Source of the DNA: Pseudomonadota bacterium
GTDB taxonomy: Bacteria > Bdellovibrionota > Bdellovibrionia > Bdellovibrionales > SG-bin7
Length of the DNA stretch: 33,035 bases
Direction of reading: 5' to 3'
NCBI GenBank assembly: GCA_034439715.1
Contig: JAWXAY010000064.1
Span: 1 to 33,035 of the forward strand
A program made the translations under genes and the position numbers. The notes beneath the pieces were generated by a model that had not been told where the DNA came from, ran no database searches, and saw only the letters and a list, made by a program, of their open reading frames with translations. This document shows positions 126-19,180 of this stretch, in pieces. Numbering within the stretch: position 1 is the first letter of the stretch; every line of letters begins with the position of its first letter.

Positions 126-719
126 TTAAGTAAAACCTTTGGCCACAAGATCAATGTAATAACTGAGACGCGCATCCTGTCGCCCCACAACTTTAGCTTC
201 TTCATCCCAAGAGCGTATTCTTAGTGCGTCTTTAAAAAGAGGGTTTTGCTCAAACTCTTCAACTTCAGAAATATTTAATTTACCGCCCTGAATCAGCAAA
301 GTTTTCTTGCTGGCTGCAGAGAGTCTTTCGGCATAACTTTCGTGCTTGGTAACTAAATACCGTTTGGCTGTCACATGTAACTTTACGAGTTCAGCAATTC
401 TAACTGAAAAACCTAAATTCTTTAGAAATTCAGCGCCGACAGTTTCATGGTCCATCCGCCCGAGGTTCATCATTTTTTGAGAATCGCCATCTGAAATAAG
501 GTGACCGATATCGTGTAAAAATGCTGCTAACACGGTTTCTGGGGAGGCGTGAGCTCCGATTGCTAGATCACCACACTGAATGGCATGCTCTAACTGCGAT
601 ATATTCTCGCCTATATAATCGAGTTCAGCAGCTTTGCTATAGAGGCCCTCTATTATGGCCATGGCAGTGGCTATGGCTGAGGCTAGAGCTGGGGCCCTAA
701 TGTTTGAATTATATCTCAT
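126..719 (-). CDS. HD-domain protein, PhnZ/TmpB-like diiron oxygenase / phosphohydrolase family
   Basis: Motifs YIGENISQLEHAIQC, AAFLHDIGH, DHETVGA, LHVTAKRYL, LSAASKKTL..QGG and RSWDEEAK match the PhnZ-type HD subfamily. Start probably ATG 719 (or 662) rather than the track start at 809. Confidence 0.85.
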   Translation of the reverse strand: MRYNSNIRAPALASAIATAMAIIEGLYSKAAELDYIGENISQLEHAIQCGDLAIGAHASPETVLAAFLHDIGHLISDGDSQKMMNLGRMDHETVGAEFLKNLGFSVRIAELVKLHVTAKRYLVTKHESYAERLSAASKKTLLIQGGKLNISEVEEFEQNPLFKDALRIRSWDEEAKVVGRQDARLSYYIDLVAKGFT

Positions 720-792
720 AGATTTATTGCTTTGTAGCACAGCAAAAATACTAAGGCAAAAGTTAAGAAACTGACTATTCTTGCCTGACGAC

Positions 793-837
793 TGTCTAAT
801 TTTTAACACCTTTAGATCAAATAAAAGAGATCTAAAG
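793..837. promoter_or_regulatory. Putative transcription-factor sites: TGT-N10-ACA (793-808) and a 9-bp inverted repeat CTTTAGATC-N10-GATCTAAAG (810-837)
   Basis: Both are visible in the divergent intergenic region, about 45-90 bp upstream of a sigma54-like element. TGT-N10-ACA is the NifA-type enhancer pattern. Confidence 0.35.
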
Positions 838-2185: not shown

Positions 2186-2217
2186 ATACAAGGAAATCCT
2201 AGACAAAAAACTCTATC

Positions 2218-2246
2218 TTGGCTATCGAATTAGTAGCAATTAGCAT
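2218..2246 (+). promoter_or_regulatory. Putative sigma70 promoter for tRNA-Gly
   Basis: TTGGCT-N17-TAGCAT, ending 16 bp before the mature tRNA 5' end. Confidence 0.45.
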
Positions 2247-2262
2247 GATAAAACTTAAAGAT

Positions 2263-2338
2263 GCGGGAATAGCTCAGTTGATAGAGCATCGGCTTCCCAA
2301 GCCGAGGGTCGCGGGTTTGAGTCCCGTTTCCCGCTCCA
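2263..2338 (+). tRNA. tRNA-Gly (anticodon CCC)
   Basis: 76-nt cloverleaf: acceptor stem GCGGGAA/TTCCCGC, D-stem GCTC/GAGC, anticodon stem TCGGC/GCCGA with loop TTCCCAA, T-stem GCGGG/CCCGT, U73 discriminator, encoded CCA. Confidence 0.97.
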
Positions 2339-2360
2339 GTTTAAGGGTTCTACGAGGTCC

Positions 2361-3833
2361 TCAGCGGATATAAATAGTTTCTACTTTTTGTTGCCCCAAG
2401 ATATCGGCACGAGGTAACCCCTTTAAAAAGGCATCCAGGCTAGAAAAGACTTCCACTCCCGCAGCCTGCAATTGCCCGAGCTCGCGAGCCAAGCGATAGT
2501 GATGACTGCGCAACAGTTCCGACTCAAATTGAAGACCTGCTTTCTGAAGAATAGAAGCGTCAAGCTCGCGTTCAGAAAGAGCCAAAAAATATCGTCGATT
2601 CTTTTTATCAGCAATCACTGAGTGGGCTGCTGTTCCCAGGTTCTGATTTATTTTTGCTATGATACCTTCGAGCTGGACCTGATCCAACTTTTCACCCACC
2701 AAATCAATTCCGCCAAGGCGCCCCAAAAACTCAAAGCAAGGTGTATTGCCTATAAAATCCGTCACCTGGAGGCGATCACTAAGACCATAGCGCATCAACC
2801 CCCCGCTAGTCCATAAGAGGGGTTGCACTATCTGATGCTTTTCAAGTTTCCATGCCGGTAAAATTCTCTGACTGTTAAGACATAAAAATTCATAGTAGTG
2901 ACAGTCAATTGCTAGGGGAAGTTTGCCTTCGTAGGGAATAGTTACTACTCCTTCGGTAGCCCATAGGCCTTTGGCTAAAAAAGTAACTTTAGGAAAAATT
3001 TCTCGAAGTTGTTCGGCATATTGCTTTGATGTTGATGATTTCCACAAACTCATAGCTGCTAAATTTGGCCATGTCTCATTTAGGAAATCGACTTTTGAAA
3101 GATTAATATTAGGCAGTGGACGGACTAACTTAGGTACCTCTAAAAAATCAAAGGCCCAGATCCCTGACTTTAAAATCTCGAAAATTTCTTCTCGACGCGA
3201 GTACAAATCATCGCAAACTCGTGTCCAATAGGTAGGACTCCATACTGAAACAAAACTGAGATCCTGACAATTCATGAGTTGAACCAATAGTATGGTCCAC
3301 GCCGCCTCGCTCGTGGGGGCAAGTTCAAGTGATGGGGGCACAGCTCTAATCGAACCAAAAATCCACTGCTGCCACATAGGTAAAATTTTGAAATCATCAT
3401 TGCTGGTCAGTCCTCGCAACTCTGTGGGAAGCCAGGAAAGAGACCAGTAATGTCGGCCCACCCTAGTTCCAGGGGATTGCAGATAAACCTCATTCATTAG
3501 CAAAGCAGCTGAAGAAGAAATATCCTTTATAAAATTTCTTGAATAAGGAATCCATTTGCGCTCATCCGTCGAGCCGCTCGTAGGCACCCACCGCCTAACC
3601 CACGAGTTCTTCTCGGCTCTAACTCTATCCAAAGCGCTTTTATAAAAATCATAAGAGGTAATGCTGGAATCATGTCGCATATCCTCAATCCATGGGCAGT
3701 CCTCTAGTGATTTTTGTATTTCTTGAAATTTTTGGGTCTGAACTGTTTTACAATCACCAAGCTTTCTTCCAAAAGCCCTAGCGCGAGACTGAAAATTCCG
3801 CGACAAAAAAAAATGGCTGAGTTTAGAGTTCAT
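2361..3833 (-). CDS. GH3-family (auxin-responsive promoter-like) acyl acid-amido synthetase
   Basis: GH3/ANL nucleotide-binding motifs PTSGST..KWIP, LWATEG and RYGLSDRL, plus FLGR...DLVGEKL and HYRLARELGQL. ATGA-type 4-bp overlap with the upstream gene's stop region. Confidence 0.9.
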   Translation of the reverse strand: MNSKLSHFFLSRNFQSRARAFGRKLGDCKTVQTQKFQEIQKSLEDCPWIEDMRHDSSITSYDFYKSALDRVRAEKNSWVRRWVPTSGSTDERKWIPYSRNFIKDISSSAALLMNEVYLQSPGTRVGRHYWSLSWLPTELRGLTSNDDFKILPMWQQWIFGSIRAVPPSLELAPTSEAAWTILLVQLMNCQDLSFVSVWSPTYWTRVCDDLYSRREEIFEILKSGIWAFDFLEVPKLVRPLPNINLSKVDFLNETWPNLAAMSLWKSSTSKQYAEQLREIFPKVTFLAKGLWATEGVVTIPYEGKLPLAIDCHYYEFLCLNSQRILPAWKLEKHQIVQPLLWTSGGLMRYGLSDRLQVTDFIGNTPCFEFLGRLGGIDLVGEKLDQVQLEGIIAKINQNLGTAAHSVIADKKNRRYFLALSERELDASILQKAGLQFESELLRSHHYRLARELGQLQAAGVEVFSSLDAFLKGLPRADILGQQKVETIYIR

Positions 3834-4930
3834 ACTATTCCCATCTCAAAACCGACTAAACCATCGACAGGCTGACGAGGAGGCTGAGATTCCAGGCGCA
3901 CTGAGAACAGGTCGATTTCGAACTCAAAACTGACGAAAGCTCCCGAAGATTTTTGGCGATGTTTTTGTTCGGCATAAGAAATAATGTGGTGGTTGTGGCG
4001 GTTCTTAAATAACCAGTGTGCAAATGCTTCGGCCCCCTCTCTAGATGTCAGCGAGTCGTCCCAAGCCAAATGAGTAAGATACAAGGTAGAAAGATTTTCG
4101 CCAGCGCGTACAGCTTTGCCACCAAAAAACTTCGAAATTTGATTGAGAATTCGAAAAGGCCATGGGCAACGATCTATCATCATACGCTTGATTGCTGTTG
4201 GCGCCCAAGGCAAAGTGACAGCCAATATTCTTTTGTCTTTCTCGAGCACTAAAAAATCTTCAAGCCTCCAGCCAGGCCAATGCAATTGTCTATGTGTCCA
4301 TTCATTTCCTTCGGCTTCCGAAAAGTCGTATCCCAAAAAAACATTCTTATTAAAGCGAGTTAATAATTTTCGAATATTGGATTCATCTGTCTGAACAGCT
4401 GGCCTCACTAATAATCTAGAACCAGATGACCATGGTTTTCTAGCAAGCAAATTTATCATGCGAACTGTTTTTAAAAAATCATAGCGGAAGCCCGAGCTAC
4501 GCTTTTGATTTACAAGATTCTTTTTCGCTGTGCGATTTTGCGCGACAATCGCCGTAAAAAAATAATCAGCAGCTAAATGTTGTAAGAGTTTAGGATAAGC
4601 TTTTCTCCATAGACGGCTTGTTAAGCGAGACGACTGAATCCGCATGTCACCTAAATACCCGACCCTTAAGAGTTTGTCTTCCACATAACGGCGACTCATC
4701 GAGGCGCTAGCAAATCCTAAAAACTCTTGATTATGCCGACCTACAATACTTAGGTAATCGCTACTTTGCGCACGCAAAAGTGCAGTAAAATCTGGACTCC
4801 TTTGATAAATTAAATTCAAGCCCGCCAACTTCATTGGTGTAGCACGAAACAAACTGTCTACATCACCTTGATCGTGTGGCGAAAAGTGTGCAAGCTGGGG
4901 GAACTCCTGTTTGAGAATAGTTAAATCCAG
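3830..4930 (-). CDS. Tandem GNAT-fold acyltransferase-like protein, probable CTG start
   Basis: N-terminal ATPM...LIYQRSPDF, VGYLGDMRI (GNAT motif A region), and a second repeat starting LLVRPAVQTDESNIRKLL. The frame stays open upstream of TTG 4852 to a CTG at 4930 preceded by GGAGG-N7. Confidence 0.7.
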   Translation of the reverse strand: MDLTILKQEFPQLAHFSPHDQGDVDSLFRATPMKLAGLNLIYQRSPDFTALLRAQSSDYLSIVGRHNQEFLGFASASMSRRYVEDKLLRVGYLGDMRIQSSRLTSRLWRKAYPKLLQHLAADYFFTAIVAQNRTAKKNLVNQKRSSGFRYDFLKTVRMINLLARKPWSSGSRLLVRPAVQTDESNIRKLLTRFNKNVFLGYDFSEAEGNEWTHRQLHWPGWRLEDFLVLEKDKRILAVTLPWAPTAIKRMMIDRCPWPFRILNQISKFFGGKAVRAGENLSTLYLTHLAWDDSLTSREGAEAFAHWLFKNRHNHHIISYAEQKHRQKSSGAFVSFEFEIDLFSVRLESQPPRQPVDGLVGFEMGIV

Positions 4931-5991
4931 AGTTCACCCTCCCTGCTCAGAGAATAACTATTAATTTGCGTTTTATCTTTAGCCCCTTGAGAACGCATGC
5001 GATCAATCACCAGGTGAAGTTCATCAGCAGAAGACGAATAATATCCGCCTTTAGCATTAAAGGACTGTGGTCCCTCTTCCCTTTCAAAGATTTCCAAATT
5101 TGTGCCCTGATTTTTCATGATATCCACGTCCTGTTGTATCACTTGCCGAGTGTAAAACTTCAGAAAAGGCTTTAGCCATGGCGTGAGCCAACCCACCCTA
5201 AAACAAATCCAGGTATAAACACGTGTCTGGTACCGAGAGATAGGAGTGCACTGAGAATTTATAATAAATTGATGGTCTCCAAAAACATAGTCAACCCTCG
5301 TAATATTTGGGAAAATAAATTCATCGGTATGAATCATAGGTTTTTTTTTGCGATTTAGAAGTTTAGACGTAAATCCAATCTCATCTTTTTGCTGACGATA
5401 GGTCACTTTAAGTTTGCCGTCACTCGCGAATAAGGATATCGGAACACAGATTTGTCGGCGACGGCGAAACCATTTGTCATGGACAAAAACAGTATGGGGA
5501 ACATCCATGAAATTCTGCACTAGGTTTGTCACTTCATTTTTAAAGTCAGTAATCATGAAGTACTGGCTCCACTCGGACTCGGAGTGAAATGGAAATCGCC
5601 AAGGAGGTGGCAATTTGGGCTCTTCACTCCCAGGCCAAATCCATACACAACCATCTTGAATCTGTTGAGGCGGCGCCTTGAGTCTCCAATCCTTGGGCGG
5701 CACTAAATCACCATTAGAAGGAATCTCCGCAATGGTCCCATCAGAGTGAAAACGCCATCCATGATAAGGACAACGAATGCCCCCCTTTTCACATTTTCCC
5801 ATGCTCAATTGTGTGCCCCGATGAATGCAACGATCTTCAAAAACTCGAATTTTTTTAGTTTCATCACGAAATATCACATAGGGAGTGTCATAAACTGTCC
5901 GGCGCAAAGGTTTATCTTTAACCTCACTCTCCAGAGCTAAAACATACCAGTGATTGATAAGGTCTCCATCCATTTCTTTAAGAGACTTCAC
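4921..5991 (-). CDS. Rieske non-heme iron oxygenase alpha subunit (VanA/KshA-like)
   Basis: Rieske ligands CIH...CPYHGW, mononuclear Fe motif NFMDVPHTVFVH, and C-terminal QQDVDIM. GTG start overlaps the upstream TGA. Confidence 0.93.
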   Translation of the reverse strand: MKSLKEMDGDLINHWYVLALESEVKDKPLRRTVYDTPYVIFRDETKKIRVFEDRCIHRGTQLSMGKCEKGGIRCPYHGWRFHSDGTIAEIPSNGDLVPPKDWRLKAPPQQIQDGCVWIWPGSEEPKLPPPWRFPFHSESEWSQYFMITDFKNEVTNLVQNFMDVPHTVFVHDKWFRRRRQICVPISLFASDGKLKVTYRQQKDEIGFTSKLLNRKKKPMIHTDEFIFPNITRVDYVFGDHQFIINSQCTPISRYQTRVYTWICFRVGWLTPWLKPFLKFYTRQVIQQDVDIMKNQGTNLEIFEREEGPQSFNAKGGYYSSSADELHLVIDRMRSQGAKDKTQINSYSLSREGELWI

Positions 5992-8786
5992 GGGAACACA
6001 ACCTTGTTATACTGATTTAACAAAAGAGTAGAAACATCCTGTTTCCATTTCCCGCACCAAAAGAGCGTTGCTGAAACACCTTTTGCATTTGCTCCCAAAC
6101 CAAAATGCAGGCGCCCATCACTTTGCGACGAAAGGCCACTCACGTTTTGAGTTTCTTGGGTAATCGACCAAGACTTCCCGGCGCTTTCCATGACTTGTAA
6201 AATCACGCGCGTTCCAATTGCCTGACGATTACATTTTTGGGAATGGGATTGTAATTCAATTCCTACCCATTGATTGGGGATTTTTTCTAACGAAATATTT
6301 TTATAGAGAGATGGCTCTTGAAACTGGTGCGTAAACAAAAGATCTCTGCGACCACGGTTCTCAAAGTCAGCTGATATAACTCCGCGCGAATTTGTCAGCT
6401 GTGTGAGACCTGTACTTTCAGCAACATCCACGTATTGAGGTTTAGCCTTGGTGCCGCGATTCCAATAAAGCCGATTTCGTTCTTTGCCAAAAATGCAGTG
6501 CCCTCTAATATCGCCCCAATGACTAGCATATCTATGGATTGATGGTGGTGATCTTGCTACCTTTTCGTTGACGTACCAGTAATCAGGACACTTTTCATAG
6601 AGTCGGTCATAAGTATCATCGACCATCCCATTAGCCTGAGAAATATCAACCCAGCCATCGTTATCAAAATCTGTGGCTACGGCACCCCAACCAAAACGAC
6701 TCTCATTGAGCACACCTTTCTGCGAAGCCTCTTCCTCAATTTTTGGATAAAAGGACTGGGCTCCTGGCAAAAACGTCCACAGTAGCGAACCTTCGGCCTG
6801 CAGAGCATGGTGAACATTGGATACATAAACCCCTAGCCACCCTGTGCGGTCGTAGTCGGCGATAGAAACATTCATACCCTTATAGGTGTCGCGGCCAATA
6901 GATCCAAAAATTATACCTTTAATGTTTTCAAATTTCTTGCCTTCAATATTGTAATAGAGGTCATCGGGACCAAAATCATTGGCGATATAAATATCTGGCC
7001 ACGAATCCTGGTTAAGATCCGCAACTCCCACAGCTAGTGACCAGCGAGTTTCGACGAGACCAATGGATTCGGGATCAGCTCTCAAAAACTTATGATCTGG
7101 TGTTTGAAAATAAATATAATTAAGACCGCCATTGTTCGACTGATGCCAACTTTCGTGCATAAAATTAAACATTCTCTGATCACCAGCGTACTCAGGTTGG
7201 GGTAGAGAAAACAAATTGAGTGGTTGAGGGGTAGAGTAGTCCGGCAAGGTTTCGGGAATAACATTTAAGACCACAAGGTCAAGCAACCCGTCCTGATTGA
7301 AGTCTGCAAAAGCGGCGGACATGGAGTTTCCGAAGCGATAAAGGCCACTCTCTTGAGTCACGTCCTGCCAATCGAGCTTTCCCTTTTCGATCAACAGGTT
7401 TTTTAGAAGTCGATTAGAGCCAAAGGCTACCGGAAGAAATAAATCTTGATCACCATCATTATCATAGTCTGCAAAAACTCCGTTCATCACTAGACCATGA
7501 ACCTCAGGAGACTTTAGTATTTCGGTAAGGGCTAATAGAGGAGTTGCGTGAAATCGGTAGTCGCCCTCATTGAGGTAAATGAGCGAGCGCGTTTCTGTTT
7601 TCTTTAAGAGGTTCGTTAAGAATAGATCGGTTTTACCATCGTTATTGACGTCAGCGGCAGCACCGGCATCCCCTATGCTTAGCAGCCACTTAATAACGTG
7701 CTGAACCCGGACGTCTACACGCTGAAAAATATCCCCCGGCTCAAAAGCATTTAAACCACTCTGCGACTTATCAATTTTTTCAAAATAAAAAGTCAGGTCC
7801 TGATGCGCTATTCGTGCGTCGGCTCGATAAAAAAGAATGCTTAGCACTGTCAGTGGCGCCAAGACAAAAAACTGCCGATAATATTTGGAAGACCAGAAAC
7901 TAAGTTTTAAATAGTTAACCGGTCCCACGGCAACAGCCGCCCTCACGTGATTGATAATGAGTCGGATCAAACCGACAATCAATGCCGCATAAAAAAAAGT
8001 ATAATAGCTCTGCTTGAGGTGAAGTAACAAATCCACAGCCGCTAGCCAAAAGCCCACCCAGCGTTGTTGGGCAATATCTTTTGGTGACGTGGAGGGGTCG
8101 GTGATCATAAAAAAAGTAAAAATAAAAAATGAGGGAGAGGACAATGTTCCTAAAAAAAGAGTCTCAAACGGCAAATGGTGTTTCATAATCCAAGCGCGAA
8201 ATGCGGTCTGCAAAGTAAAAAAAATCAAGAAACTAAAAACTAAATTGTGACGGTTAACTTTAGGAATAACAAACAACAGCCCAAGCATTATCACAAAAAA
8301 TGACATCGCGGCAATGCCATTCCATTGATAAGCAGGAGCGGCCGTCACAAGATCAGAGCTAAAAAGCAAAGAAAAGGAGACTCCCACCATGGCGGGATTC
8401 AACGCGTGTTTGCCTTTATACTGAAGCAAATACTTTGAACCTATTGCGAATAAAACCGGTAGATACAAAAAACTAAGTCCGTGACTATAATTCAACAAAA
8501 ACGACAATGAAAAACTGGTGATCACAGCACTTAGTGGAAAAACAAAACGGCGATGAAATAAGTAAGTCAAGAATAGTTCAAAGCTCACGCAGGCTGCGGT
8601 GGTCACAATCGCCTGCAGTGGCGAACGATTGAATCCGAGTACCGTCAAGCCCAATAAAAGATAAGTGAATAAAATAACAGCTACAGGAATACGCGGATCA
8701 ACTCTTTGATAGCTTTGAATGCAAGCTTGCCAAAAGTCAAACCCACCGATTGGTGCCGGCGCCGCTCGAGTATCTGAAATTTCCAT
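5988..8786 (-). CDS. Fusion of an UnbU/RnfD-like polytopic membrane domain with a CRTAC1/FG-GAP beta-propeller and an ASPIC-UnbV C-terminal domain
   Basis: N-terminal ~320 aa hydrophobic, with KHALNPAM and FFMITDPSTSP (RnfD/NqrB/UnbU motifs). Seven DxDxDG-like repeats (ADVNNDG, ADYDNDG, ADFNQDG, ADLNQDS, ADYDRTG, TDFDNDG, ADFENRG). C-terminal NRQAIGTRV...SSQSDGRLHFGLG. Start ATG 8786 or TTG 8792. Confidence 0.88.
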   Translation of the reverse strand: MEISDTRAAPAPIGGFDFWQACIQSYQRVDPRIPVAVILFTYLLLGLTVLGFNRSPLQAIVTTAACVSFELFLTYLFHRRFVFPLSAVITSFSLSFLLNYSHGLSFLYLPVLFAIGSKYLLQYKGKHALNPAMVGVSFSLLFSSDLVTAAPAYQWNGIAAMSFFVIMLGLLFVIPKVNRHNLVFSFLIFFTLQTAFRAWIMKHHLPFETLFLGTLSSPSFFIFTFFMITDPSTSPKDIAQQRWVGFWLAAVDLLLHLKQSYYTFFYAALIVGLIRLIINHVRAAVAVGPVNYLKLSFWSSKYYRQFFVLAPLTVLSILFYRADARIAHQDLTFYFEKIDKSQSGLNAFEPGDIFQRVDVRVQHVIKWLLSIGDAGAAADVNNDGKTDLFLTNLLKKTETRSLIYLNEGDYRFHATPLLALTEILKSPEVHGLVMNGVFADYDNDGDQDLFLPVAFGSNRLLKNLLIEKGKLDWQDVTQESGLYRFGNSMSAAFADFNQDGLLDLVVLNVIPETLPDYSTPQPLNLFSLPQPEYAGDQRMFNFMHESWHQSNNGGLNYIYFQTPDHKFLRADPESIGLVETRWSLAVGVADLNQDSWPDIYIANDFGPDDLYYNIEGKKFENIKGIIFGSIGRDTYKGMNVSIADYDRTGWLGVYVSNVHHALQAEGSLLWTFLPGAQSFYPKIEEEASQKGVLNESRFGWGAVATDFDNDGWVDISQANGMVDDTYDRLYEKCPDYWYVNEKVARSPPSIHRYASHWGDIRGHCIFGKERNRLYWNRGTKAKPQYVDVAESTGLTQLTNSRGVISADFENRGRRDLLFTHQFQEPSLYKNISLEKIPNQWVGIELQSHSQKCNRQAIGTRVILQVMESAGKSWSITQETQNVSGLSSQSDGRLHFGLGANAKGVSATLFWCGKWKQDVSTLLLNQYNKVVFP

Positions 8787-8817
8787 ATTCAAAGCAGAAC
8801 AAAAATCGATATTTTTA

Positions 8818-10935
8818 TCAAGATTTTAATTTTAGAGCGCGCAATAGATAAAGGTCTCCCACCAAGGCGGCCAAAAATCCCAAAATCAAAAATAGCCCAA
8901 GCTCACGCATAGTTAAAAAATAAGAGAAGAAAAATAGCGCCGATAGGCCCATCATAAAAATAGACACACTGAATGCCATTAAACTTAACTGTCCCGCTCT
9001 GTCTTGGTTCTTACGATTTGCACGGTTCATTATAAACTGAATGGTGTTGTCGCCGGCCAAGCCTACTACTATGGCGCCCACCACGGCAGTCATCATGTTG
9101 ATGGGAAACTGAAAAAGTGCCATCAATATCATCATGACACATGGAGCCCACATGGCGGTCGCTAAATAGAGCCAAATTGGTCTTTGCCGATTGATGACCA
9201 GCAGACCAAAAATCACTCCTGCAACCAGCAACAAACTCAGTACAAAACTCTCGGCCAAAGTATTAATAAGAAGACGTGTGTATTCTGCAAATACCACCAT
9301 CTCCCCTTGCACGGCACAATGGCTGTTGCAGATTTGTTCAAGCTTCTCCGTCAAACTGTTGATTTTTAAAACATCCCCCGAAGCTAAAAGAACAAAAATT
9401 CTTTCTTGTCTATCGGCGCTGATAAACTTTTGTCCCAACAGAGTTAATCGGCTCTCACGTTGAATAAGGTCATTTAAAAGTTCACTGCCTTCGCTGCGTG
9501 GCAAGTGGTCATCAATGGTTTCTACCTGAACTACCCCTGGTAAAATTTTGATTTCATCCAAAATCTTTTTTTTATCGGAGACATTTATCGCTCGTTTGAA
9601 CACGACTTGTAGATCGCTCTGAGCCCCTCTGATTTGCTTTAATTTCTCAGTCACTTGAGAAAAGGAGTGTTGCTCGGGCAATATATCAAAAGGCGAGTGA
9701 TTGAGATTCATTTTTTTGAGCGCAAAAGGAGACAAAGTCATTATTAGCAATATCCCCATCGCCAAAGATTTCGGTAACAACCTGATTGACATTTTTTTAA
9801 AAATCTCGCTAAGAGACGATGGCTTGGTCCAATACTGGAGACTGGGAAAAAGCCTAAGAATCGATGGTAGAAACACAAAAATGACGATCCATTCAAGAAG
9901 GGCGCCCCACGCCGTCCAAAAACCGAATCGGCGCACGGCCGACAGATCACTGACAAGGAGAGAACCAAACCCTATTACGGTTGTTAACGTCGTAAAAAAA
10001 CTGGCTGCAGAAAAGCGAGCGATGGCATGAAATCCACGCCTGCCTTTTTCTACTTGATAGGTACTAATGGCGACAAAATCTTCGATGACCGCCAAGGATA
10101 ACACCAAAAACAGTCCGGTCGTAAGGGGATCGATAGGAACACCACTAGCCGTCATGGCCAGTTGCAATGGAATAAAAGCGGCAGAAAGGCAACCTAACAT
10201 TAAAAATCCGGATTTCCAGGTATTAAAAAGTAGCCGCGCCAAAAGCATCAAAGCAACAATAAATAAGATATTTAATTTTTGGGTGGCATCCATGCCTTCC
10301 TTCATCGCCTGCTGAAAAATAAGATTGCCCGTAAACCCTAAATTCCAAGAAGAAAGATTATCGCTTAGCGTTTTTTGAATGCGCGATGTGTGTTCCGGAT
10401 CAAAACGACCATAGGTAGTGACTTTTTTTAAATCCTCAAAACCAAAAATTAGAATAACGCTAGTAAAATCCTTATCAAAAAATATTTGACTGTTCGATGC
10501 CCCTTTAACCTTGGCCCACCAGACAGGGGATTCGTGGCAATTGTGGGGAATCAGCGTCGGAAAAAAAACATGGTGAGGTGAGGTTTCGACTTCTCGTATT
10601 TGAAACGGACTGTAAAAATGCACAAGATTGTCAAGCTTAGGAATAACTCTCTCAATGGCTCCTTTTAACTGGCAGAGATCAGCCGCGCTCCACGCTTGCC
10701 CCCCCTTAGGACTTACTATCAAGAACAACTCCTGATCAGACGAGAATTGTTCGAGATGATGCCTGAAGCTTTCCACCCTTTTGCTTTTGGAGTCTACGAA
10801 GTCGAGTGTGTTTATGTTAATAACCAGCGGTTTTAAAAAGAATGCTGGCATTAGCAATAACAGGTATAAACCAATACCCCAAAAAGGTTTCCTGTAGAAA
10901 AATCGACTAAGTTTACGAAAGAAGAACACAGTCAT
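8818..10935 (-). CDS. MMPL/RND-superfamily lipid exporter
   Basis: Two-fold repeat of TM, extracytoplasmic domain and 5 TM. Motifs TTLTTVIGFGSL..S...VRRFG and GLAGDNTIQF. Confidence 0.88.
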   Translation of the reverse strand: MTVFFFRKLSRFFYRKPFWGIGLYLLLLMPAFFLKPLVININTLDFVDSKSKRVESFRHHLEQFSSDQELFLIVSPKGGQAWSAADLCQLKGAIERVIPKLDNLVHFYSPFQIREVETSPHHVFFPTLIPHNCHESPVWWAKVKGASNSQIFFDKDFTSVILIFGFEDLKKVTTYGRFDPEHTSRIQKTLSDNLSSWNLGFTGNLIFQQAMKEGMDATQKLNILFIVALMLLARLLFNTWKSGFLMLGCLSAAFIPLQLAMTASGVPIDPLTTGLFLVLSLAVIEDFVAISTYQVEKGRRGFHAIARFSAASFFTTLTTVIGFGSLLVSDLSAVRRFGFWTAWGALLEWIVIFVFLPSILRLFPSLQYWTKPSSLSEIFKKMSIRLLPKSLAMGILLIMTLSPFALKKMNLNHSPFDILPEQHSFSQVTEKLKQIRGAQSDLQVVFKRAINVSDKKKILDEIKILPGVVQVETIDDHLPRSEGSELLNDLIQRESRLTLLGQKFISADRQERIFVLLASGDVLKINSLTEKLEQICNSHCAVQGEMVVFAEYTRLLINTLAESFVLSLLLVAGVIFGLLVINRQRPIWLYLATAMWAPCVMMILMALFQFPINMMTAVVGAIVVGLAGDNTIQFIMNRANRKNQDRAGQLSLMAFSVSIFMMGLSALFFFSYFLTMRELGLFLILGFLAALVGDLYLLRALKLKS

Positions 10936-11833
10936 CGATCATACCGACACAGATCTGACTATCAGTTATGGTTTCTGTAGTGGTCCACTGCCACTCAATT
11001 TTCAAGAGTTTGCCCTCAGAGAACGACAATTTTAAGATCTTCCCGAAGCGCAGCATCTCTTTATTGAAGTAGATATAAAAATTCCCTAAAGAATATGATG
11101 TCAATAGATTGTCTTTAAAAGTAATTGGTTGAGGCGTGTGAGAATGGTGACCTATAACTACCGGAAACTCCTTAAATTTTGAGTGCCTTAGATCTCGCTC
11201 GAGGGCTGAAGGAAAAAAACAAAATTCCTTTCCCCAATGTAAAGATGCAATGGTCCCTTTATTTATGTCACTAAAACCAATTACCTCAGAGCAAGGAACG
11301 TTTGACATTTGAGTAGCACCAACCAACCTTACTTTATTAGCGTCGAAAAATGGCCGATCTTTTAATCCATAATAATGAGAGTGCGAAGCTGCCAAAACTT
11401 TTTTTGTATTAATGAGTCCTTCGACACCGTAGTCAAAAGAGTGATTGTTGGCCAAACCAAATACCCACTGCCCCAAAGGCTTTAGTAAATTGAGGTCCTC
11501 TAAGATCCTAGGATGATTGAACTGTTTAATAAAAACGAGATCGCGTTTTTCAACCAAAGGGCCTTCAAGATTGGATACTAAAAAATCGCAATCCTCAACA
11601 AAGTTTTTGAGAAGAGGCGAAAACCGCAATTTTTTACCCGAAGTTCCCATCAAATCGCCGACAAAACCCAATTTCAAATCGCAAGCCCCAGAAGCCACTT
11701 CGACGCACTTTGGTATATCATGCAATTGTAAAGGATTTTTAAAGTCTCCACCACGCAAAAAACGCCAGACCCAAGCTGCTGAATGTTTAAATCCGTAGGG
11801 AGACTTGAATTGTTCTAGGTTCATGCTTACCAT
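10913..11833 (-). CDS. CapA/PGA_cap-family metallophosphoesterase-fold protein, apparently cytoplasmic
   Basis: Motifs GFVGDLM, NLEGP, LANNHSFDYG, SLHWGKE, GHHSHTPQ and YSLGNF. No signal peptide or TM anchor visible. Start 11833 or 11824. Confidence 0.88.
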   Translation of the reverse strand: MVSMNLEQFKSPYGFKHSAAWVWRFLRGGDFKNPLQLHDIPKCVEVASGACDLKLGFVGDLMGTSGKKLRFSPLLKNFVEDCDFLVSNLEGPLVEKRDLVFIKQFNHPRILEDLNLLKPLGQWVFGLANNHSFDYGVEGLINTKKVLAASHSHYYGLKDRPFFDANKVRLVGATQMSNVPCSEVIGFSDINKGTIASLHWGKEFCFFPSALERDLRHSKFKEFPVVIGHHSHTPQPITFKDNLLTSYSLGNFYIYFNKEMLRFGKILKLSFSEGKLLKIEWQWTTTETITDSQICVGMIDDCVLLS

Positions 11834-11858
11834 TAGTGAAAGAGTTTAGACGAGTTTT

Positions 11859-12875
11859 ATGGATGCTCAAGCAATATTAGTATGGATAGTTCCCTTCTTC
11901 CTTATCTTTATGGGATTGGAACTCTTTTACTTTTATAAAATTGATAGAAGAGTTTACAAGACCAAAGACACGCTTTGCAGTCTTAGTTGTGGCTTTGGCC
12001 AGGCTCTGGTCGATTCTATTTTAAAAGTTTTCTTGATATGGAGTTACGACATTTTACAGCGGAAGATCGGCATTGCTCCGCAACCCCCTAGCGTCCTCCG
12101 ACTTATATCTGCATTTATCGTGGTGGATTTTATGTACTACGTTTATCACCGCCTATCTCATAATATTAACTGGATGTGGGCGATCCACGTCGTTCATCAT
12201 TCCAGTTCCGAATTCAATTATTCAGTCGCCTTGAGGCAGGCTTGGTTTCAAAAGCTTTCCGCTTTTCCATTTTACTTGCTATTTATTTTTACAGGAGTAG
12301 GCGCAGAACTCATTGGCGTAATCATTGCCATACATGCTTGCTGGCAATTTTTGTCTCATACGCGAATGAGCAAAAATGAAATTCCCATTGTCCGCTGGCT
12401 ATTTGTGACTCCGGCCCATCATCGCGTTCACCATGGTACCAATCCCCAGTACATAAATAGAAATTTTGCCGGCGTGTTGTCAGTTTGGGACAGACTATTT
12501 AATAGCTATGAACCCGAAGTTGAAGCCGTTAAATACGGTATTAGCCCTCAACTTGAAAAATATGGCGTTTGGAAAATCAACACTCATATCTGGCTCGATA
12601 TCTTTCGTGATTTAAGATCACTTCCGACGATAAGACAAAAATGGAAGCTGCTGTGGAGTTCTCCACAAGGAGCTCAGTCGGACTCACCTATCCCACCAAA
12701 AAAATCAAATAACCCTTCGACGCCACTACTAATATTCCAGACCTGTGTCTTTTTATTAATCATTTGTTTTTTAGCCTTTCACCCTACATGGCCACTAACC
12801 TGGCGGCTGACGCTGGGCGCATGCCTTCTTGTTTTTCTAATTTTTTCTGGCCAACTCATCGACAAAACATTGTAA
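11859..12875 (+). CDS. Sterol desaturase / fatty acid hydroxylase superfamily protein, alkylglycerol monooxygenase-like
   Basis: His boxes YYVYHRLSH, HVVHHSS..FNYSVALRQ, FLSH and TPAHHRVHHG.N..YINRNFAG.LSVWDRLF, with multiple TM segments. Confidence 0.9.
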   Translation: MDAQAILVWIVPFFLIFMGLELFYFYKIDRRVYKTKDTLCSLSCGFGQALVDSILKVFLIWSYDILQRKIGIAPQPPSVLRLISAFIVVDFMYYVYHRLSHNINWMWAIHVVHHSSSEFNYSVALRQAWFQKLSAFPFYLLFIFTGVGAELIGVIIAIHACWQFLSHTRMSKNEIPIVRWLFVTPAHHRVHHGTNPQYINRNFAGVLSVWDRLFNSYEPEVEAVKYGISPQLEKYGVWKINTHIWLDIFRDLRSLPTIRQKWKLLWSSPQGAQSDSPIPPKKSNNPSTPLLIFQTCVFLLIICFLAFHPTWPLTWRLTLGACLLVFLIFSGQLIDKTL

Positions 12876-12902
12876 TTAACACAAGAAAATAAGGAGAACC
12901 TC

Positions 12903-14453
12903 ATGAAATTAAATCTTGTTCTTATCGTCTGTTTTTTCTCTTTCGTAGCCAGTGCGGCAAGGCCAAAAGCTTATTCATTCAAACAATATTTGGCGGAAGT
13001 CCAAAGGCCCGTGGCAATCGCCGAAGCAGACTACCCTTATTTTGACGAAAAAATGTCGGCTACAATAAAACCCCAGCTAGATATAGAAGCTCAGAGAAAA
13101 CCTGCTCAGATGAGTGAACTCCAAGAAAGTAATATGAGCCCCGATGCTCAAGAGGTCATAAAATCTATTGCAGCCATTGACGTCAGTGACGAAAATCCAA
13201 AAGCCACTGACGAGCTCGATAATCTTATTAACTTATATTTGGATAAGAAGTACGCCACACTTTCTCCAGACGCTAAACTCATTGTGTCTCAACTGCGAAG
13301 CCTAAAACCATTTCGCGGTTTCCTTTGGAGATTTAGACCCTATCTTGATCAAGCGCGCATAACACAAACCGCGGCACTCACATCATTTAAGAATTTAGCG
13401 GCCAATTTGCGCTGGTTGCTCCGTTCACCACAGGCTAAGCTGGCTTTCAGATACGTCTCCGAGCCCTACGCCGAAGGCGATGTTTTAGCGCCCGCAATTG
13501 ATAGCGAAGGAAAAATTCAATATTGGTTAGCGTCTGAGGTATTACCAGCCTTTAGTAAAACAGCTAAAATGTTGCACGAAATACCTGTCGATTCTGCAAA
13601 GCCTCTCGTTTGGGATAACCGTCTGCTTATGGGGCCCGAAAGTTTTAAAGATGGCATTGATCGCTTTAAGTGGACGGGCGAGGTTGAAAAACAACTTCTC
13701 ATTGCCTCCTACGAAAATTCAATTTCTCAAATTTTATTTTTTAATTCTTACTCGATTTACAATCTCTTAGAATTATCGGTTGATCTGGGAAAACTTTTTG
13801 GTGTCGATAGCCTTCCTATTCCGTTTACTGAGGCTCAAGGCGTGACCATGGCGCAATATCAATCTGTGATCATGAAATCAAAGTATGAAGAGTTTGGTAA
13901 AAAAATAAGTGGTTGTACGTACGCCAATAAGGCTTGCATGGAAATGTCCTTTAAATACTTGAAATCGGCAACCGAACGCACTTACGATGTGTGGAAAATT
14001 GCGCAAAGGCGAGATGGAAATAATTTCTTCGCGCTAAACACAGAGTATGCACAGGTCGATATCGCACGCGGCAATATCAATTTTGAGAATATCAAGAGCT
14101 TGGTCAATAGAAAAACCATGCTTCGCAGTCTTGCTACGGGCGAAGTCGCAGTGTTTGACCTGAGGGCTTTCTATATGCCAAATCCTCCCGCAGATCTTAA
14201 GGCACTTTTGCCTACGGGTTTTGATAATACTAAAGACCGTGAAAAGTCTATCCAGTTAGGGAAACTAACCAAAACCGAGTCCTATCGTAATTTCTTTTTC
14301 GGCAGTCCACTCACTTGGAAAAGCGTTGAGCCCTACAAATCATTTTTACCGAATGTGACTTCGGGTAGCGACGTACTTCAAGCCGGTCGTGTTTTAGCAC
14401 ACGCCACGGCAGGAATTGTGAGAATTCCCGGATTAACCTTGGCCGAACAATGA
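12903..14453 (+). CDS. Secreted hypothetical protein (516 aa)
   Basis: SD AAGGAG, signal peptide MKLNLVLIVCFFSFVASA, and an ATGA overlap with the next gene. No recognisable domain. Confidence 0.8.
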   Translation: MKLNLVLIVCFFSFVASAARPKAYSFKQYLAEVQRPVAIAEADYPYFDEKMSATIKPQLDIEAQRKPAQMSELQESNMSPDAQEVIKSIAAIDVSDENPKATDELDNLINLYLDKKYATLSPDAKLIVSQLRSLKPFRGFLWRFRPYLDQARITQTAALTSFKNLAANLRWLLRSPQAKLAFRYVSEPYAEGDVLAPAIDSEGKIQYWLASEVLPAFSKTAKMLHEIPVDSAKPLVWDNRLLMGPESFKDGIDRFKWTGEVEKQLLIASYENSISQILFFNSYSIYNLLELSVDLGKLFGVDSLPIPFTEAQGVTMAQYQSVIMKSKYEEFGKKISGCTYANKACMEMSFKYLKSATERTYDVWKIAQRRDGNNFFALNTEYAQVDIARGNINFENIKSLVNRKTMLRSLATGEVAVFDLRAFYMPNPPADLKALLPTGFDNTKDREKSIQLGKLTKTESYRNFFFGSPLTWKSVEPYKSFLPNVTSGSDVLQAGRVLAHATAGIVRIPGLTLAEQ

Positions 14454-15247
14454 TTCAAACAGGAGAGGCTCATAAGGATTTTGCTGTCGCTCAGGCAACT
14501 GAGCGGAAGCGACTTATTGGAAAGATTAAATCTGTCAACAGCCTTTCTGAAACTGAGATTAATGAGATGTATCATCTCTTTATTCGCTATTATGAAAATA
14601 CATCTCTGCAAAAGTTTCGCGATGACCTCTTAAGAAAACGTGATGTATTGCTAGCATCAACGGATAAACAAATTATCGGTTTTACTACAATAACCGAAAT
14701 GAAATTTACCACTTCAACTAATCAGTTGGTAGTTGGCCTGTTTTCAGGTGATACGATTGTTAACCAGCTCTATTGGGGAAAAACCCCACTCAAACGCTTG
14801 TTTTTTGTTTATCTTTGGCGGCAAAAAATAAAATATCCCTTTGTTCCCGTATATTGGTTGCTCATTTCGAAAGGCTACAAAACCTACTTAATTCTGACTA
14901 ATAATTTTTTGTCGTATTTTCCTCAGGCTAAACGATCTACTCCTGTTCACATCAAAGATATACTTAACCAATATGCTCGCGACCTTTACGGCGATCGTTA
15001 TGATGCGAGCACAGGACTCATTTACTCGCAAGGTAAGAATGACCATATAAAAAATGGCGTTGCGCCGGTCGACAGCCACCTGAGATCTCAAAATATCAAC
15101 ATTAAGTTTTTTGTGGAACAAAACCCTAACTGGCAGCAAGGCGACGAACTCGTTTGTTTGGCTCGGGTCGACTTTCTGTCACTGCTATTTGGTTTTCTTA
15201 AAGCCATTTTTAAAAGTAAATTTCAAAAATCCAAGCAGACTGAATAA
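14450..15247 (+). CDS. Conserved hypothetical protein with probable GNAT-like fold
   Basis: Motifs IIGFTT, FSGDTIV...YWG, YWLLISKGYKTY and FF..QNPNWQQGDELVCLA. From recollection, not a search, this family often lies near bacterial GH3 genes. Confidence 0.65.
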   Translation: MIQTGEAHKDFAVAQATERKRLIGKIKSVNSLSETEINEMYHLFIRYYENTSLQKFRDDLLRKRDVLLASTDKQIIGFTTITEMKFTTSTNQLVVGLFSGDTIVNQLYWGKTPLKRLFFVYLWRQKIKYPFVPVYWLLISKGYKTYLILTNNFLSYFPQAKRSTPVHIKDILNQYARDLYGDRYDASTGLIYSQGKNDHIKNGVAPVDSHLRSQNINIKFFVEQNPNWQQGDELVCLARVDFLSLLFGFLKAIFKSKFQKSKQTE

Positions 15248-15842
15248 ATAGTTGCAGCAAAACCACAGCTGCCACAAAAGTTGTGAGGCGATTGATAAAA
15301 ATCCACTTTGGATCGTTGGAAGCAAAATAAACATTGTCCTTTTCTTCATTCTGAGAACGAGTTTTTAGAAACAAATAGGCAAACACCCCTTCAAATATTG
15401 TCGAAAAAATAATGACCAGTGCGTAGGAATAACAAACTGAATTAAAATTATTTTCTAACGAAAACTCGCCCCAAAATCCTGATTGCCATCCAAGCACGAC
15501 AAATAAAATAATATGCAGAGTGTCGTGGGTAATTCCGTAGCGCGGAGACCAGTTGTACCAGCGATAGATCATAAATAGCTCTAAAATTCCACGCGTCCAC
15601 CAGCTCACCAAATGACCTACCAATACATATCTAAAATTATCTGGCAGATCTGTGTGAAATAAAAAGAAAAATGGTAAAATAAACCACGTCAAAACTGTAT
15701 AGAATAACCAAATTGATTTTGGCCAAGATATAGGTCCACCCGTCCACGCTTTTTTAGAGTTCTGTCGCCCATGGAAAAGGCAGGCTAAAATGAGAATTAA
15801 AAATGGCCAAAGAAAAATTACCAAATTTAAACCTTGATTCAT
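15210..15842 (-). CDS. Integral membrane protein (~6 TM), function unknown
   Basis: Alternating hydrophobic segments with polar conserved-looking motifs (TGGPISWPK, WSPRYGITHD, VYFAS). Overlaps the convergent gene by 38 bp. Confidence 0.75.
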   Translation of the reverse strand: MNQGLNLVIFLWPFLILILACLFHGRQNSKKAWTGGPISWPKSIWLFYTVLTWFILPFFFLFHTDLPDNFRYVLVGHLVSWWTRGILELFMIYRWYNWSPRYGITHDTLHIILFVVLGWQSGFWGEFSLENNFNSVCYSYALVIIFSTIFEGVFAYLFLKTRSQNEEKDNVYFASNDPKWIFINRLTTFVAAVVLLQLFIQSAWIFEIYF

Positions 15843-15898
15843 TAAACAAGTATAGCAATCATGTAAAAATAATCCAACATTAGTTAAAGGAGCCCTCT

Positions 15899-16444
15899 AT
15901 GCCTCACATAAATACTTCTGCTCAAATGCCAGGAATTGTCGACTTAATGATGACCAATCGAACATCTCATGAAGCGTTAGGTAAATTGGCCAATGCTATT
16001 TTGTTTGAAGAGTCCCCTCTTAGCCGAGGAGAACGAGAAATCATTGCAGCATATGTATCTGTTCTCAATAACTGCCGTTTTTGCTCTCTATCACATATTG
16101 CGATTGCCTCTGGTCTCGCTGACAATGTGGAACCCATTATTGAAGATTTAAAATCCAAGGGTTTTACTGAGAGACTATCTCTTAAAATGAATGCACTTTT
16201 GAAAATTGCCAGCGAAGTGCAAAAAAGTGGACGCGATGTTAAAGATGAATCAATAGCAAAAGCCAAAGCACTGGGTGCCAGCGATGGGGAACTACATGAC
16301 ACAGTATTAGTTGCTGCCGCATTTTGCATGTTCAATCGTTACGTAGACGGATTACAAGCTACCACGCCGGAGCCTGGCCATCCTTACTATAAGCAGGCCT
16401 CCGAAATGATAGTGAGTCGCGGTTACCAGGCGATACCCTCCTAA
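15899..16444 (+). CDS. AhpD / carboxymuconolactone decarboxylase-family peroxidase-related protein
   Basis: LSRGEREIIAAYVS.LNNCRFCSLSH (E-x11-C-x2-C-x3-H) and AAFCMFNRYVDGL. SD AAAGGAG. Confidence 0.9.
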   Translation: MPHINTSAQMPGIVDLMMTNRTSHEALGKLANAILFEESPLSRGEREIIAAYVSVLNNCRFCSLSHIAIASGLADNVEPIIEDLKSKGFTERLSLKMNALLKIASEVQKSGRDVKDESIAKAKALGASDGELHDTVLVAAAFCMFNRYVDGLQATTPEPGHPYYKQASEMIVSRGYQAIPS

Positions 16445-17820: not shown

Positions 17821-19179
17821 TTAGATTTTAATGCTGGCGCGGCCCTTAAGCGTAACCGTATGTTTATTGATCTCTATCATTTTGGGGGTCCCAACGAGTT
17901 CAAATAGAACTTCATTGAGTCGATGAATGGTCATTCGTAAGCTGCGATAATAGATCGAATCAAAGTCAACAAGCCAAATTTTTTGAATTAGGGACTCAGT
18001 TGTAACTTGTTTAGATATAGACAGGGCCTCCATAATCTCTAAAAATCCGGAGCGCCGAGCAATATCAATAGATTTAGTGCCAAAGAATAATATCTTTGAG
18101 GCCTGATTAAAATTGATTGAAATATCTTCGTTAATTATCAAAATAGAGTGGTATCGAGATAGCCACAGTTGTTGCGACTCCGGTGTCAAAGAGTCCAAAA
18201 TAACCTTAAGAAGATTTCTTAACTCATTGGTATCAGAAGTATCCTTTGAAACGGCGAGATTCAGACCAAGTGCTCTAATATAACAAGTCACGGGCAGTGT
18301 CCTGGACAGAGCGATTAAGTTTCTAAAATCTGTTTTGTTTTCTCCGCTAAGGGCTATGCGATGAATTTCTTTTTCATATAGATTTAATTGAGCAAATTTC
18401 ATAAACTTAAAAAGTCTTTTATCGATTCTGTGATTTTGCAGGAGAAGTTCTTCTAAAAAATCATAGAATATTAGCTGTTTATCAACTTCACTAATGTGTT
18501 CATTATTTAAAATTTCTATTAATCTATTTGTGGCGTTTTTTGCACCGGCCAATGTCAGTTCTGATAACAGTAGTGCGTGTTGCACATCTACGTCAGCATG
18601 AAGATTGATGTCTGCCGAGCCGACGCTTATCATGCGTCTATAGGTGTTGGCTAACATTCCACTTAAACGAAAAGTCGACATGACTCTCATGGCTTGAGCC
18701 ATAACCCGAAAAAATCGCGGAACATCTTTGCGTTCATCCATTTGGATCATGAGTTGATTATAAAGTTTAGAGGCAGCGGCCACCTCACCGTCTTCTTCTA
18801 AAAATTTGGCGATGTTCAACTCGACCATTGAGCGTCTTTCAGAACAAAGAAAATCCTTATTGATTTCATAGGCTGCCTTTAAATCTTCAAAGGCAAACTT
18901 CCAATTTTTGAAATCAGAAAGCAGATAGAAGCACATGGCAATGTCGGTCAAGATGGCTACATGACTCCCAAAGTCTTTTTGGATTTGTAATAGCAAACCA
19001 AGTGCTTCGTTAATTTTACCAGTGAACATTAAGATTTCAGCCTGGCTATGCCCCAATATTCGAGACTCAACAACAGATTGAGGCTTATAACTTTCGATCA
19101 AACTGAGTGCTTTTTTGGACTGTCCGCCCTCGGCTAACTTAAATGCTTGGCTTTTTAGTGTTATAGCTAGATTCGACAT
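17821..19179 (-). CDS. Putative transcriptional regulator: TPR-like helical repeats plus C-terminal OmpR/PhoB-type winged HTH
   Basis: ATG 19179 with SD GGGAGG, 1 bp after the upstream stop. TPR-like segments (AEILMFTGKINEAL, AKFLEEDGEVAAA) and C-terminal ESLIQKIW...RSLRMTIHRLNEVL. No receiver or ATPase domain. Confidence 0.75.
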   Translation of the reverse strand: MSNLAITLKSQAFKLAEGGQSKKALSLIESYKPQSVVESRILGHSQAEILMFTGKINEALGLLLQIQKDFGSHVAILTDIAMCFYLLSDFKNWKFAFEDLKAAYEINKDFLCSERRSMVELNIAKFLEEDGEVAAASKLYNQLMIQMDERKDVPRFFRVMAQAMRVMSTFRLSGMLANTYRRMISVGSADINLHADVDVQHALLLSELTLAGAKNATNRLIEILNNEHISEVDKQLIFYDFLEELLLQNHRIDKRLFKFMKFAQLNLYEKEIHRIALSGENKTDFRNLIALSRTLPVTCYIRALGLNLAVSKDTSDTNELRNLLKVILDSLTPESQQLWLSRYHSILIINEDISINFNQASKILFFGTKSIDIARRSGFLEIMEALSISKQVTTESLIQKIWLVDFDSIYYRSLRMTIHRLNEVLFELVGTPKMIEINKHTVTLKGRASIKI

Positions 19180-19180
19180 A

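Follow-up and report, generated by a model that had tools for sequence, protein, structure and literature searches.

The 33,035-nucleotide window analysed here (JAWXAY010000064.1) is an entire contig of a 3.26-Mb metagenome-assembled genome with a completeness of 95.7%; SG_bin7 is its nearest named relative, and its remaining relatives are Bdellovibrionota. Between positions 2361 and 16444 it carries eleven genes, among them those for a GH3-type ligase, two GNAT-fold proteins, a Rieske oxygenase, an MMPL-type transporter and a natural fusion of two proteins, UnbU and UnbV, that are otherwise known from enediyne antibiotic clusters. The locus is real, conserved and apparently undescribed in print.

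All eleven genes and the overlaps given for them in an earlier sequence-only reading were recovered by open reading frame (ORF) and Pfam checks. Six minus-strand ORFs lead from 11833 down to 2361 and encode, in this order, a CapA/PGA_cap protein, the MMPL protein, an RnfD-like domain fused to FG-GAP and UnbV_ASPIC domains, the Rieske oxygenase, a protein without Pfam match and GH3. Their junctions are a 23-bp overlap, a 31-bp gap and overlaps of 4, 10 and 4 bp, where the gap assumes an ATG start of the fusion at 8786 and would shrink to 25 bp with a TTG start at 8792. The divergent starts of the two arms lie 25 bp apart, as had been read. The two-arm layout itself needed correction, since a gene for a 210-aa membrane protein is on the minus strand, convergent with the second GNAT gene (38-bp overlap) and divergent from an AhpD-like gene at a distance of 56 bp, the largest intergenic gap inside the cluster. 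The locus hence has at least four transcription directions instead of two.

The GH3-type acyl-adenylate/amide ligase (490 aa; 2361–3833, minus strand; Pfam GH3 and GH3_M) is a core gene. It carries three nucleotide-binding motifs, TSGSTDERK at residue 85, GLWATEG at 289 and GLMRYGLSD at 345, which agree with those listed for OlsH and JAR1, and the residues S86, G87, S88, K93, E294, R348, Y349 and D353 are kept in at least 95% of 19 aligned rows. A sequence search of the PDB returned plant GH3 matches only, with E values of 0.055–0.33. A quick tree built from 52 GH3 rows places 26 of the 27 sequences from fusion-bearing genomes in one clade with a Shimodaira–Hasegawa-like approximate likelihood-ratio support (SH-aLRT) of 100, which also includes two minimal loci and an Acinetobacter protein.

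Next to GH3 lies GNAT1 (3830–4930, minus strand), a GNAT-family acyltransferase of 366 aa and a core gene of the fusion variant, whose length makes two GNAT domains likely. Its start is most likely the CTG at 4930, which is required for the 10-bp overlap with the Rieske gene; the same 10 bp recur in the homologous loci L001, L003 and L005. GNAT2 (14450–15247, plus strand; alignment of 109 of the 120 listed homologs) is a single-domain protein and a near-obligate partner of GH3. Neither protein has a GNAT match in Pfam; despite this, both earlier guesses of a GNAT fold are backed by structure comparison. For GNAT1, structural neighbours in the Atlas of a model of its 340-aa form gave template modelling (TM) scores of 0.72–0.90 over the full length, and seven of ten carry GNAT Pfam families. 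For GNAT2, an AlphaFold2 (AF2) model with a mean predicted local distance difference test score (pLDDT) of 91.7 retrieved GNAT folds at Z 10.3–12.4, including NatD, LasI and FeeM, with no preferred relative. PDB sequence searches gave nothing useful for GNAT2, GNAT1 or the 210-aa membrane protein.

The UnbU-UnbV fusion (932 aa; 5988–8786, minus strand), which marks the variant of the system found here, combines by Pfam an RnfD/NqrB-like membrane domain with a CRTAC1-type β-propeller, and both halves match neighbouring Streptomyces enediyne E4/E5 genes at 26–28% identity in tblastn. Its AF2 model (pLDDT 91) consists of about eleven long helices followed by the propeller, which superimposes on CRTAC1 with Z 35.3 and a root-mean-square deviation of 2.6 over 461 residues; the enzyme aldos-2-ulose dehydratase, whose propeller is similar, follows as the next distinct Foldseek match. 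These fold searches reached the propeller only, and the membrane half is assigned through its sequence alignment to RnfD, in which the NPA and FMxTDP motifs are retained. We take these motifs to be the riboflavin pocket of RnfD/NqrB. In an alignment of 119 of the 120 listed fusion homologs with 14 locus proteins, their N, P, T, D and P residues are invariant in all 133 rows. The position that presumably corresponds to the RnfD threonine carrying covalent flavin mononucleotide (FMN) is occupied by Ala (112 rows), Ser (20) or Val (1); the adjoining Thr148 is kept in 118 of 133 rows, and a shifted FMN site is possible. A periplasmic propeller is suggested by three features, namely a homolog (P0114) in which the cytoplasmic GNAT2 is fused to the N-terminus of UnbU-UnbV, basic residues ahead of the last helix, and a conserved cysteine pair. 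More distant UnbV/UnbU-like genes occur elsewhere, as two tandem fusions in L061 (G240:C10) and as a split pair adjoining radical-SAM genes in L063 (G253:C53).

The 210-aa membrane protein (15210–15842, minus strand) belongs to no known family and is tied to the fusion by co-occurrence and by a homolog (P0352) in which it is fused N-terminally to UnbU-UnbV. It conserves R84, E88, H106, D107 and E151. A complex prediction with residues 14–800 of UnbU-UnbV, in which the propeller was shortened, scored 0.00 and is evidence neither way. Other organisms have fusions of the same membrane domain with an FA_hydroxylase and with a glycerophosphodiester phosphodiesterase domain (P0321, P0372).

The Rieske non-haem iron oxygenase (4921–5991, minus strand; Pfam Rieske and VanA_C) is a variant-specific subtype with the motifs CxH..CxxH and NxxDxxHxxxxH, in which C55, H57, C74 and H77, N160, D163, H166 and H171, as well as D288, are conserved, so that the Rieske ligands and the 2-His-1-carboxylate iron site are both in place; its best PDB sequence matches are SxtT, GxtA-like proteins and DdmC. 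Export could be served by the MMPL/RND-family transporter (8818–10935, minus strand; Pfam MMPL, weak matches to HpnN and HAE3), which pairs with a secreted protein of 516 aa (12903–14453, plus strand). The latter has no known family and no named fold in the Atlas; it shows signal-peptide-like N-termini in 21 aligned rows and is likely the periplasmic partner of the transporter. Second genomic copies of it also adjoin an MMPL gene (e. g. G283:C45:18817-23755 and G244:C1:1801279-1804662). The remaining genes encode a CapA/PGA_cap metallophosphoesterase-fold protein (10913–11833, minus strand; Pfam PGA_cap and motifs), a His-box diiron enzyme of the FA_hydroxylase family (11859–12875, plus strand; His boxes at 97, 110 and 187), which presumably resembles alkylglycerol monooxygenase, and an AhpD-like peroxidase-related protein (15899–16444, plus strand; Pfam CMD, TIGR01926 under its cut-off, CxxCxxxH at 59), which is optional and variant-specific. 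The FA_hydroxylase-type gene occupies the place where most relatives have FA_desaturase-family genes. Elsewhere (G211:C35:14772-16899), homologs of CapA and of this window desaturase are adjacent to each other and away from the cluster, which suggests that the two form a small unit of their own.

Four queries, i. e. the fusion, GNAT2, the secreted protein and GH3, were run on the same 301 genomes of the phylum. The full-length fusion was found in 26 genomes, with weak matches below 175 bits in six more, and GNAT2 in 50, including all 26 fusion carriers. The secreted protein was found in 39 genomes, six of which lack GNAT2 (of the MMPL pair, the search in these six covered the secreted protein only), and GH3 in 66. 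GH3 matches of at least 63 bits occur in 49 genomes, all of them GNAT2 carriers, and in none of the other 251; the sole GNAT2 carrier without this GH3 type is an assembly of 160 contigs. The GH3 scores are split between 227 and 155 bits, and the upper group comprises 26 genomes, of which 24 carry the fusion.

The other genes were searched in the 50 GNAT2 carriers only, 26 with and 24 without the fusion. The 210-aa membrane protein is present in 23 fusion carriers versus none of the fusion-free genomes; alignment A3 held one unrelated gene (L105:6191-6832) among its 59 rows, which explains a weak second match in G128 and leaves the 23 of 26 unaffected. The Rieske subtype follows the same pattern (25/26 versus 0/24, with a more distant Rieske in 14 of the 24), as does AhpD (12/26 versus 0/24). 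GNAT1 at 280 bits or more was found in 25 of 26 versus 3 of 24, where the scores of G079, G105 and G294 are inflated by their own rows in alignment A4. MMPL (22/26 versus 10/24) is absent from the same four fusion genomes as the secreted protein, and two of these four have TauE beside the fusion. CapA is rare (4/26 versus 1/24) and adjoins the cluster in three genomes. Altogether, 21 of the 26 fusion genomes combine the GH3 clade, the Rieske subtype, GNAT1 and the membrane protein, and 17 add MMPL and the secreted protein to this set.

The genes co-occur more regularly than they are physically linked. GNAT2 of the nearest relative maps about 270 kb away from the other genes, some genomes also split the set, and 23 neighbourhoods gave 20 different gene orders, some of which differ only because a stretch ends. 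Apart from the nearest relative, L012 alone has a close match of the window desaturase inside the cluster. The proposed six-gene operon is thus no conserved unit, given the rarity of CapA, a desaturase that is seldom in the cluster and the shuffled gene order. Instead, the system consists of a core module of GNAT2 and GH3, often with GNAT1; an export module of MMPL and the secreted protein, a separate pair that also occurs away from the cluster; and a variant module of UnbU-UnbV, the membrane protein, the Rieske subtype and optionally AhpD. CapA and the FA_hydroxylase-type enzyme are accessory. Related neighbourhoods contain FA_desaturase-family genes (19/23) and PAP2 (13/23), besides PlsC-type and LbH acyltransferases, Lnb_N, YceI, LolA-like proteins and, as weak matches, Mpo1-like proteins. 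An exporter, be it MMPL, TauE, an ABC transporter with a LolA-like protein or EmrAB-TolC, is always nearby except in L071, a minimal locus that ends at a contig end.

The core is not confined to the phylum. Acinetobacter baumannii (L064:5102-12781) harbors a minimal form of the system as an EmrA-EmrB-GNAT2-GH3-TolC-GNAT1 run with a GH3 from the clade of the window protein, in Burkholderia the core is accompanied by PAP2, desaturases, a Rieske and a ferritin-like enzyme, and on a Citrobacter plasmid by four radical-SAM genes. Homologs are not scattered, as a neighbourhood check proposed earlier might have revealed; the set recurs across Bdellovibrionota genomes, and the GNAT2-GH3-GNAT1 trio in distant taxa. 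In place of the fusion module, carriers without the fusion have either radical-SAM genes or several Rieskes together with ferritin-like and short-chain dehydrogenase genes. Among the Bdellovibrionota, a second variant (L072, L073, L075, L078–L088) assembles three to five Rieskes round GNAT2 and GH3, mostly without GNAT1, along with ferritin-like, short-chain dehydrogenase, Mpo1-like and FA_hydroxylase genes.

That a conserved set free of polyketide synthases (PKS) and nonribosomal peptide synthetases (NRPS) unites amide-forming, oxidising and export enzymes, as the sequence-only reading had it, is supported by gene content, folds and motifs. We consider it somewhat more probable than its converse that this set constitutes a pathway which works without a carrier protein and yields an oxidised lipid with an amide linkage for export. 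From the observed gene content, folds, motifs and co-occurrence, we infer the steps, their order and the substrates as follows. In an OlsH-like reaction, GH3 would use ATP to activate a free carboxylic acid (most probably a fatty acid) and couple it to an amine or amino acid. GNAT2 and GNAT1 may then acylate the product further, provided that the scaffold offers several amines or hydroxyls, before the Rieske and His-box diiron enzymes hydroxylate or desaturate the amide lipid. Passage through the inner membrane could depend on MMPL, which would hand the lipid to the secreted protein, its periplasmic carrier. UnbU-UnbV and the 210-aa protein might complete the product by a redox reaction on the periplasmic side of the inner membrane, with a non-covalent flavin held by UnbU and catalysis in the propeller. 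Peroxide would be removed by AhpD, and CapA would be an add-on.

This proposal builds on the co-occurrence of GNAT2 with the GH3 type (49 of 50 carriers, none of the 251 other genomes), on the intact GH3 motifs together with the precedent of OlsH, which works without acyl carrier protein (ACP) or coenzyme A (CoA), on the lipid enzymes and the exporter that neighbour related loci, on the natural fusions of UnbU-UnbV with GNAT2 or the membrane protein, and on the invariant NP and TDP motifs of UnbU that align with RnfD. Several points weigh against it. No OlsI-type hydrolase stands beside the window GH3, and the GH3 tree does not include the OlsH sequence. The tied GNAT-fold matches point to no substrate, the cluster contains no Rieske reductase, and a redox role of UnbU is not assured given the missing FMN threonine. 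The counts are drawn among kin in which whole clusters move as blocks and are not independent events, and score cut-offs were chosen after viewing gaps in the score lists. Finally, EmrAB-TolC near the same GH3 clade in Acinetobacter speaks for a compound that is secreted and not kept as a membrane lipid.

Such a secreted small molecule on an acyl-amide basis, for instance a signal, antibiotic or surfactant instead of a resident envelope lipid, is an unlikely alternative, although the most probable of those considered. Besides the Acinetobacter run, the patchy spread of the fusion (26 of 301 genomes; within g10, a Bdellovibrio-type genus, 3 of 18) and the swappable tailoring genes resemble specialised metabolism. 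The exporter of the window, however, is MMPL with a periplasmic partner, no outer-membrane channel is encoded in the locus, and the substrates of PAP2 and of membrane desaturases are bound to the membrane. Uptake, remodelling or degradation of foreign lipids, e. g. from prey, would fit a largely predatory host phylum, Rieske and FA_hydroxylase-type enzymes that are often catabolic, and an MMPL/RND transporter that could work in either direction. We nevertheless regard it as improbable: 251 of the 301 phylum genomes searched are without GNAT2, the locus holds no β-oxidation, ring-cleavage or outer-membrane uptake gene, and ATP-dependent amide formation is a building step. The presence of the core trio in non-predators, as in Acinetobacter, Burkholderia and on the Citrobacter plasmid, makes the remodelling of prey lipid considered in the sequence-only reading unlikely as well.

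No more probable is the lipidation of a protein or peptide instead of a free lipid. The GNAT matches do include protein N-terminal acetyltransferases, and some loci have Lnb_N and LolA-like neighbours or, in L053, a GNAT2-Lnb_N fusion, yet a separate precursor gene would not fit into internal gaps of at most 56 bp, a conserved small ORF was not observed (ORFs below 90 aa were left uncompared across loci), and known GH3 enzymes use small molecules. Tailoring and export of a sterol or hopanoid is the most remote of these explanations. The source genome has three triterpene-cyclase-family genes (G000:C43:2041-3960, C86:588-2516 and C94:77778-79769; L067, L068), and weak matches link the Rieske to SdmA and MMPL to HpnN. 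These matches reach 67 of 600 and 44 of 752 bits, respectively, far under the cut-offs, and a cyclase is found in 4 of the 26 fusion genomes versus 32 of 301 overall; an endogenous triterpenoid substrate is thereby largely refuted. The C86 cyclase gene follows a predicted flavin monooxygenase-like gene, judged by eye to be a possible squalene epoxidase.

With respect to sequence quality and borders, the runs that carry the source DNA are microbial-mat metagenomes, with no RNA run among those listed. Contigs from run X3 are identical (0 differences) to window positions 2200–8687 and 8946–14404, so that the CTG start and the 25-bp divergent gap are not assembly errors. Contigs from runs X4 and X6 stop at 8122 and 15118 (255 loose letters), which may reflect strain variation or, in a subset of the population, insertions into the genes for the fusion and GNAT2. 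The cluster has a GC content of 38–44%, similar to the 42.3% of the genome, and its genes are single-copy there except for distant paralogs of GNAT1 and the desaturase. The borders drawn earlier were correct: the flanking genes (HD, TfoX-like, 1745, 16473 and 17821) recur in none of 73 neighbourhoods checked. On the left, a tRNA-Gly(CCC) gene (2263–2338, plus strand; ARAGORN), convergent with GH3 and outside the pathway, is a possible insertion site at the cluster end, although GC is host-like and no integrase is among the 27 window proteins scanned. Promoter and terminator scans of the window gave counts at chance level (28 versus 30.6 and 18 versus 16.7). Elsewhere in the window are an HD-domain oxygenase like PhnZ/TmpB (126–809, minus strand; 188.5 bits, under the 214.6 cut-off), unlinked to the cluster in relatives, a 1357-aa protein (21150–25223, minus strand) and two more large proteins (17821–20278, minus strand), these three without Pfam or NCBIfam match.

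Returning to the amide-lipid pathway, it would represent a widespread candidate biosynthetic system without PKS, NRPS or carrier protein that rule-based cluster finders likely miss, and one that splits into separately testable core, export and variant modules. Cultured carriers with complete genomes exist, such as Bdellovibrio sp. HCB337, which lacks a triterpene cyclase; the fusion is also found in NC01 and BCCA. Moreover, the fusion offers a PKS-free setting for asking what the enediyne E4/E5 proteins catalyze, for which a role in iodinated polyyne formation has reportedly been described by Gui et al. in 2024. As a speculative and rather unlikely extension, UnbU-UnbV and the 210-aa protein might act on their own as a membrane oxidase with enediyne-type chemistry, by which an unsaturated chain of a lipid built by GH3 and the GNATs would be halogenated or given a triple bond. 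If so, the acetylenic or halogenated amide lipids of these bacteria would form a new class, and the fusion would give the simplest access to the role of E4/E5 in enediyne biosynthesis.

Among known systems, the enediyne PKS belongs to a five-gene cassette (PMC8341276). The fusion halves are homologous to its E4 (UnbV) and E5 (UnbU), but here they are fused in the order UnbU-UnbV and accompanied by the membrane protein, Rieske and GH3. The window contains neither an enediyne PKS (PKSE) nor a thioesterase, and the four ketosynthase matches of the 95.7% complete genome lie in frames of 398–433 aa; the identity as an enediyne cluster is ruled out by the lack of a PKSE. E3, which we take to be DUF1702, has no Pfam match among the window proteins and none in the genome, where the control also matched nowhere. 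With RnfD/NqrB, UnbU shares the membrane fold and both motifs; it differs in the Ala/Ser at the FMN position, in the fused propeller and in having no other Rnf/Nqr subunit nearby. FeeM N-acyl amino acid synthases and LasI N-acylhomoserine lactone (AHL) synthases share the GNAT fold with GNAT2, and their scores (Z 10.8 and 11.9, identity 8–11%) are tied with those of unrelated GNATs (10.3–12.4). The stieleriacine N-acyl tyrosine route likewise yields N-acyl amides, and a term search of its description gave no mention of GH3, Rieske, GNAT, MMPL or desaturase (PMC12479983).

The sequence-only reading knew of no characterised pathway with this gene set. This stands insofar as no description of the set was found in the literature searched, which did not extend to most subscription papers, supplements and MIBiG; it does not stand for bacterial GH3 lipid routes as such, of which OlsH is a characterised example. 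In the ornithine-lipid pathway of Singulisphaera acidiphila, in which ornithine is acylated with long-chain fatty acids, the GH3 enzyme OlsH works with ATP on a free fatty acid and an amino acid and requires neither ACP nor CoA; it showed no activity inside E. coli cells (PMC12493201; review PMC12971839). Both OlsH and the window protein are bacterial GH3s with three nucleotide-binding motifs, as listed for OlsH in PMC12493201, and amide formation from a free acid is the feature of OlsH that is proposed here. In contrast, the OlsH operon, as described there, includes the α/β-hydrolase O-acyltransferase OlsI, whereas none of the eleven locus genes has a hydrolase-fold match, and the window locus instead provides two GNAT folds, a Rieske, MMPL export and UnbU-UnbV. 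Hence, OlsH/OlsI is the closest known route, and the gene set of the window locus lies outside that pathway.

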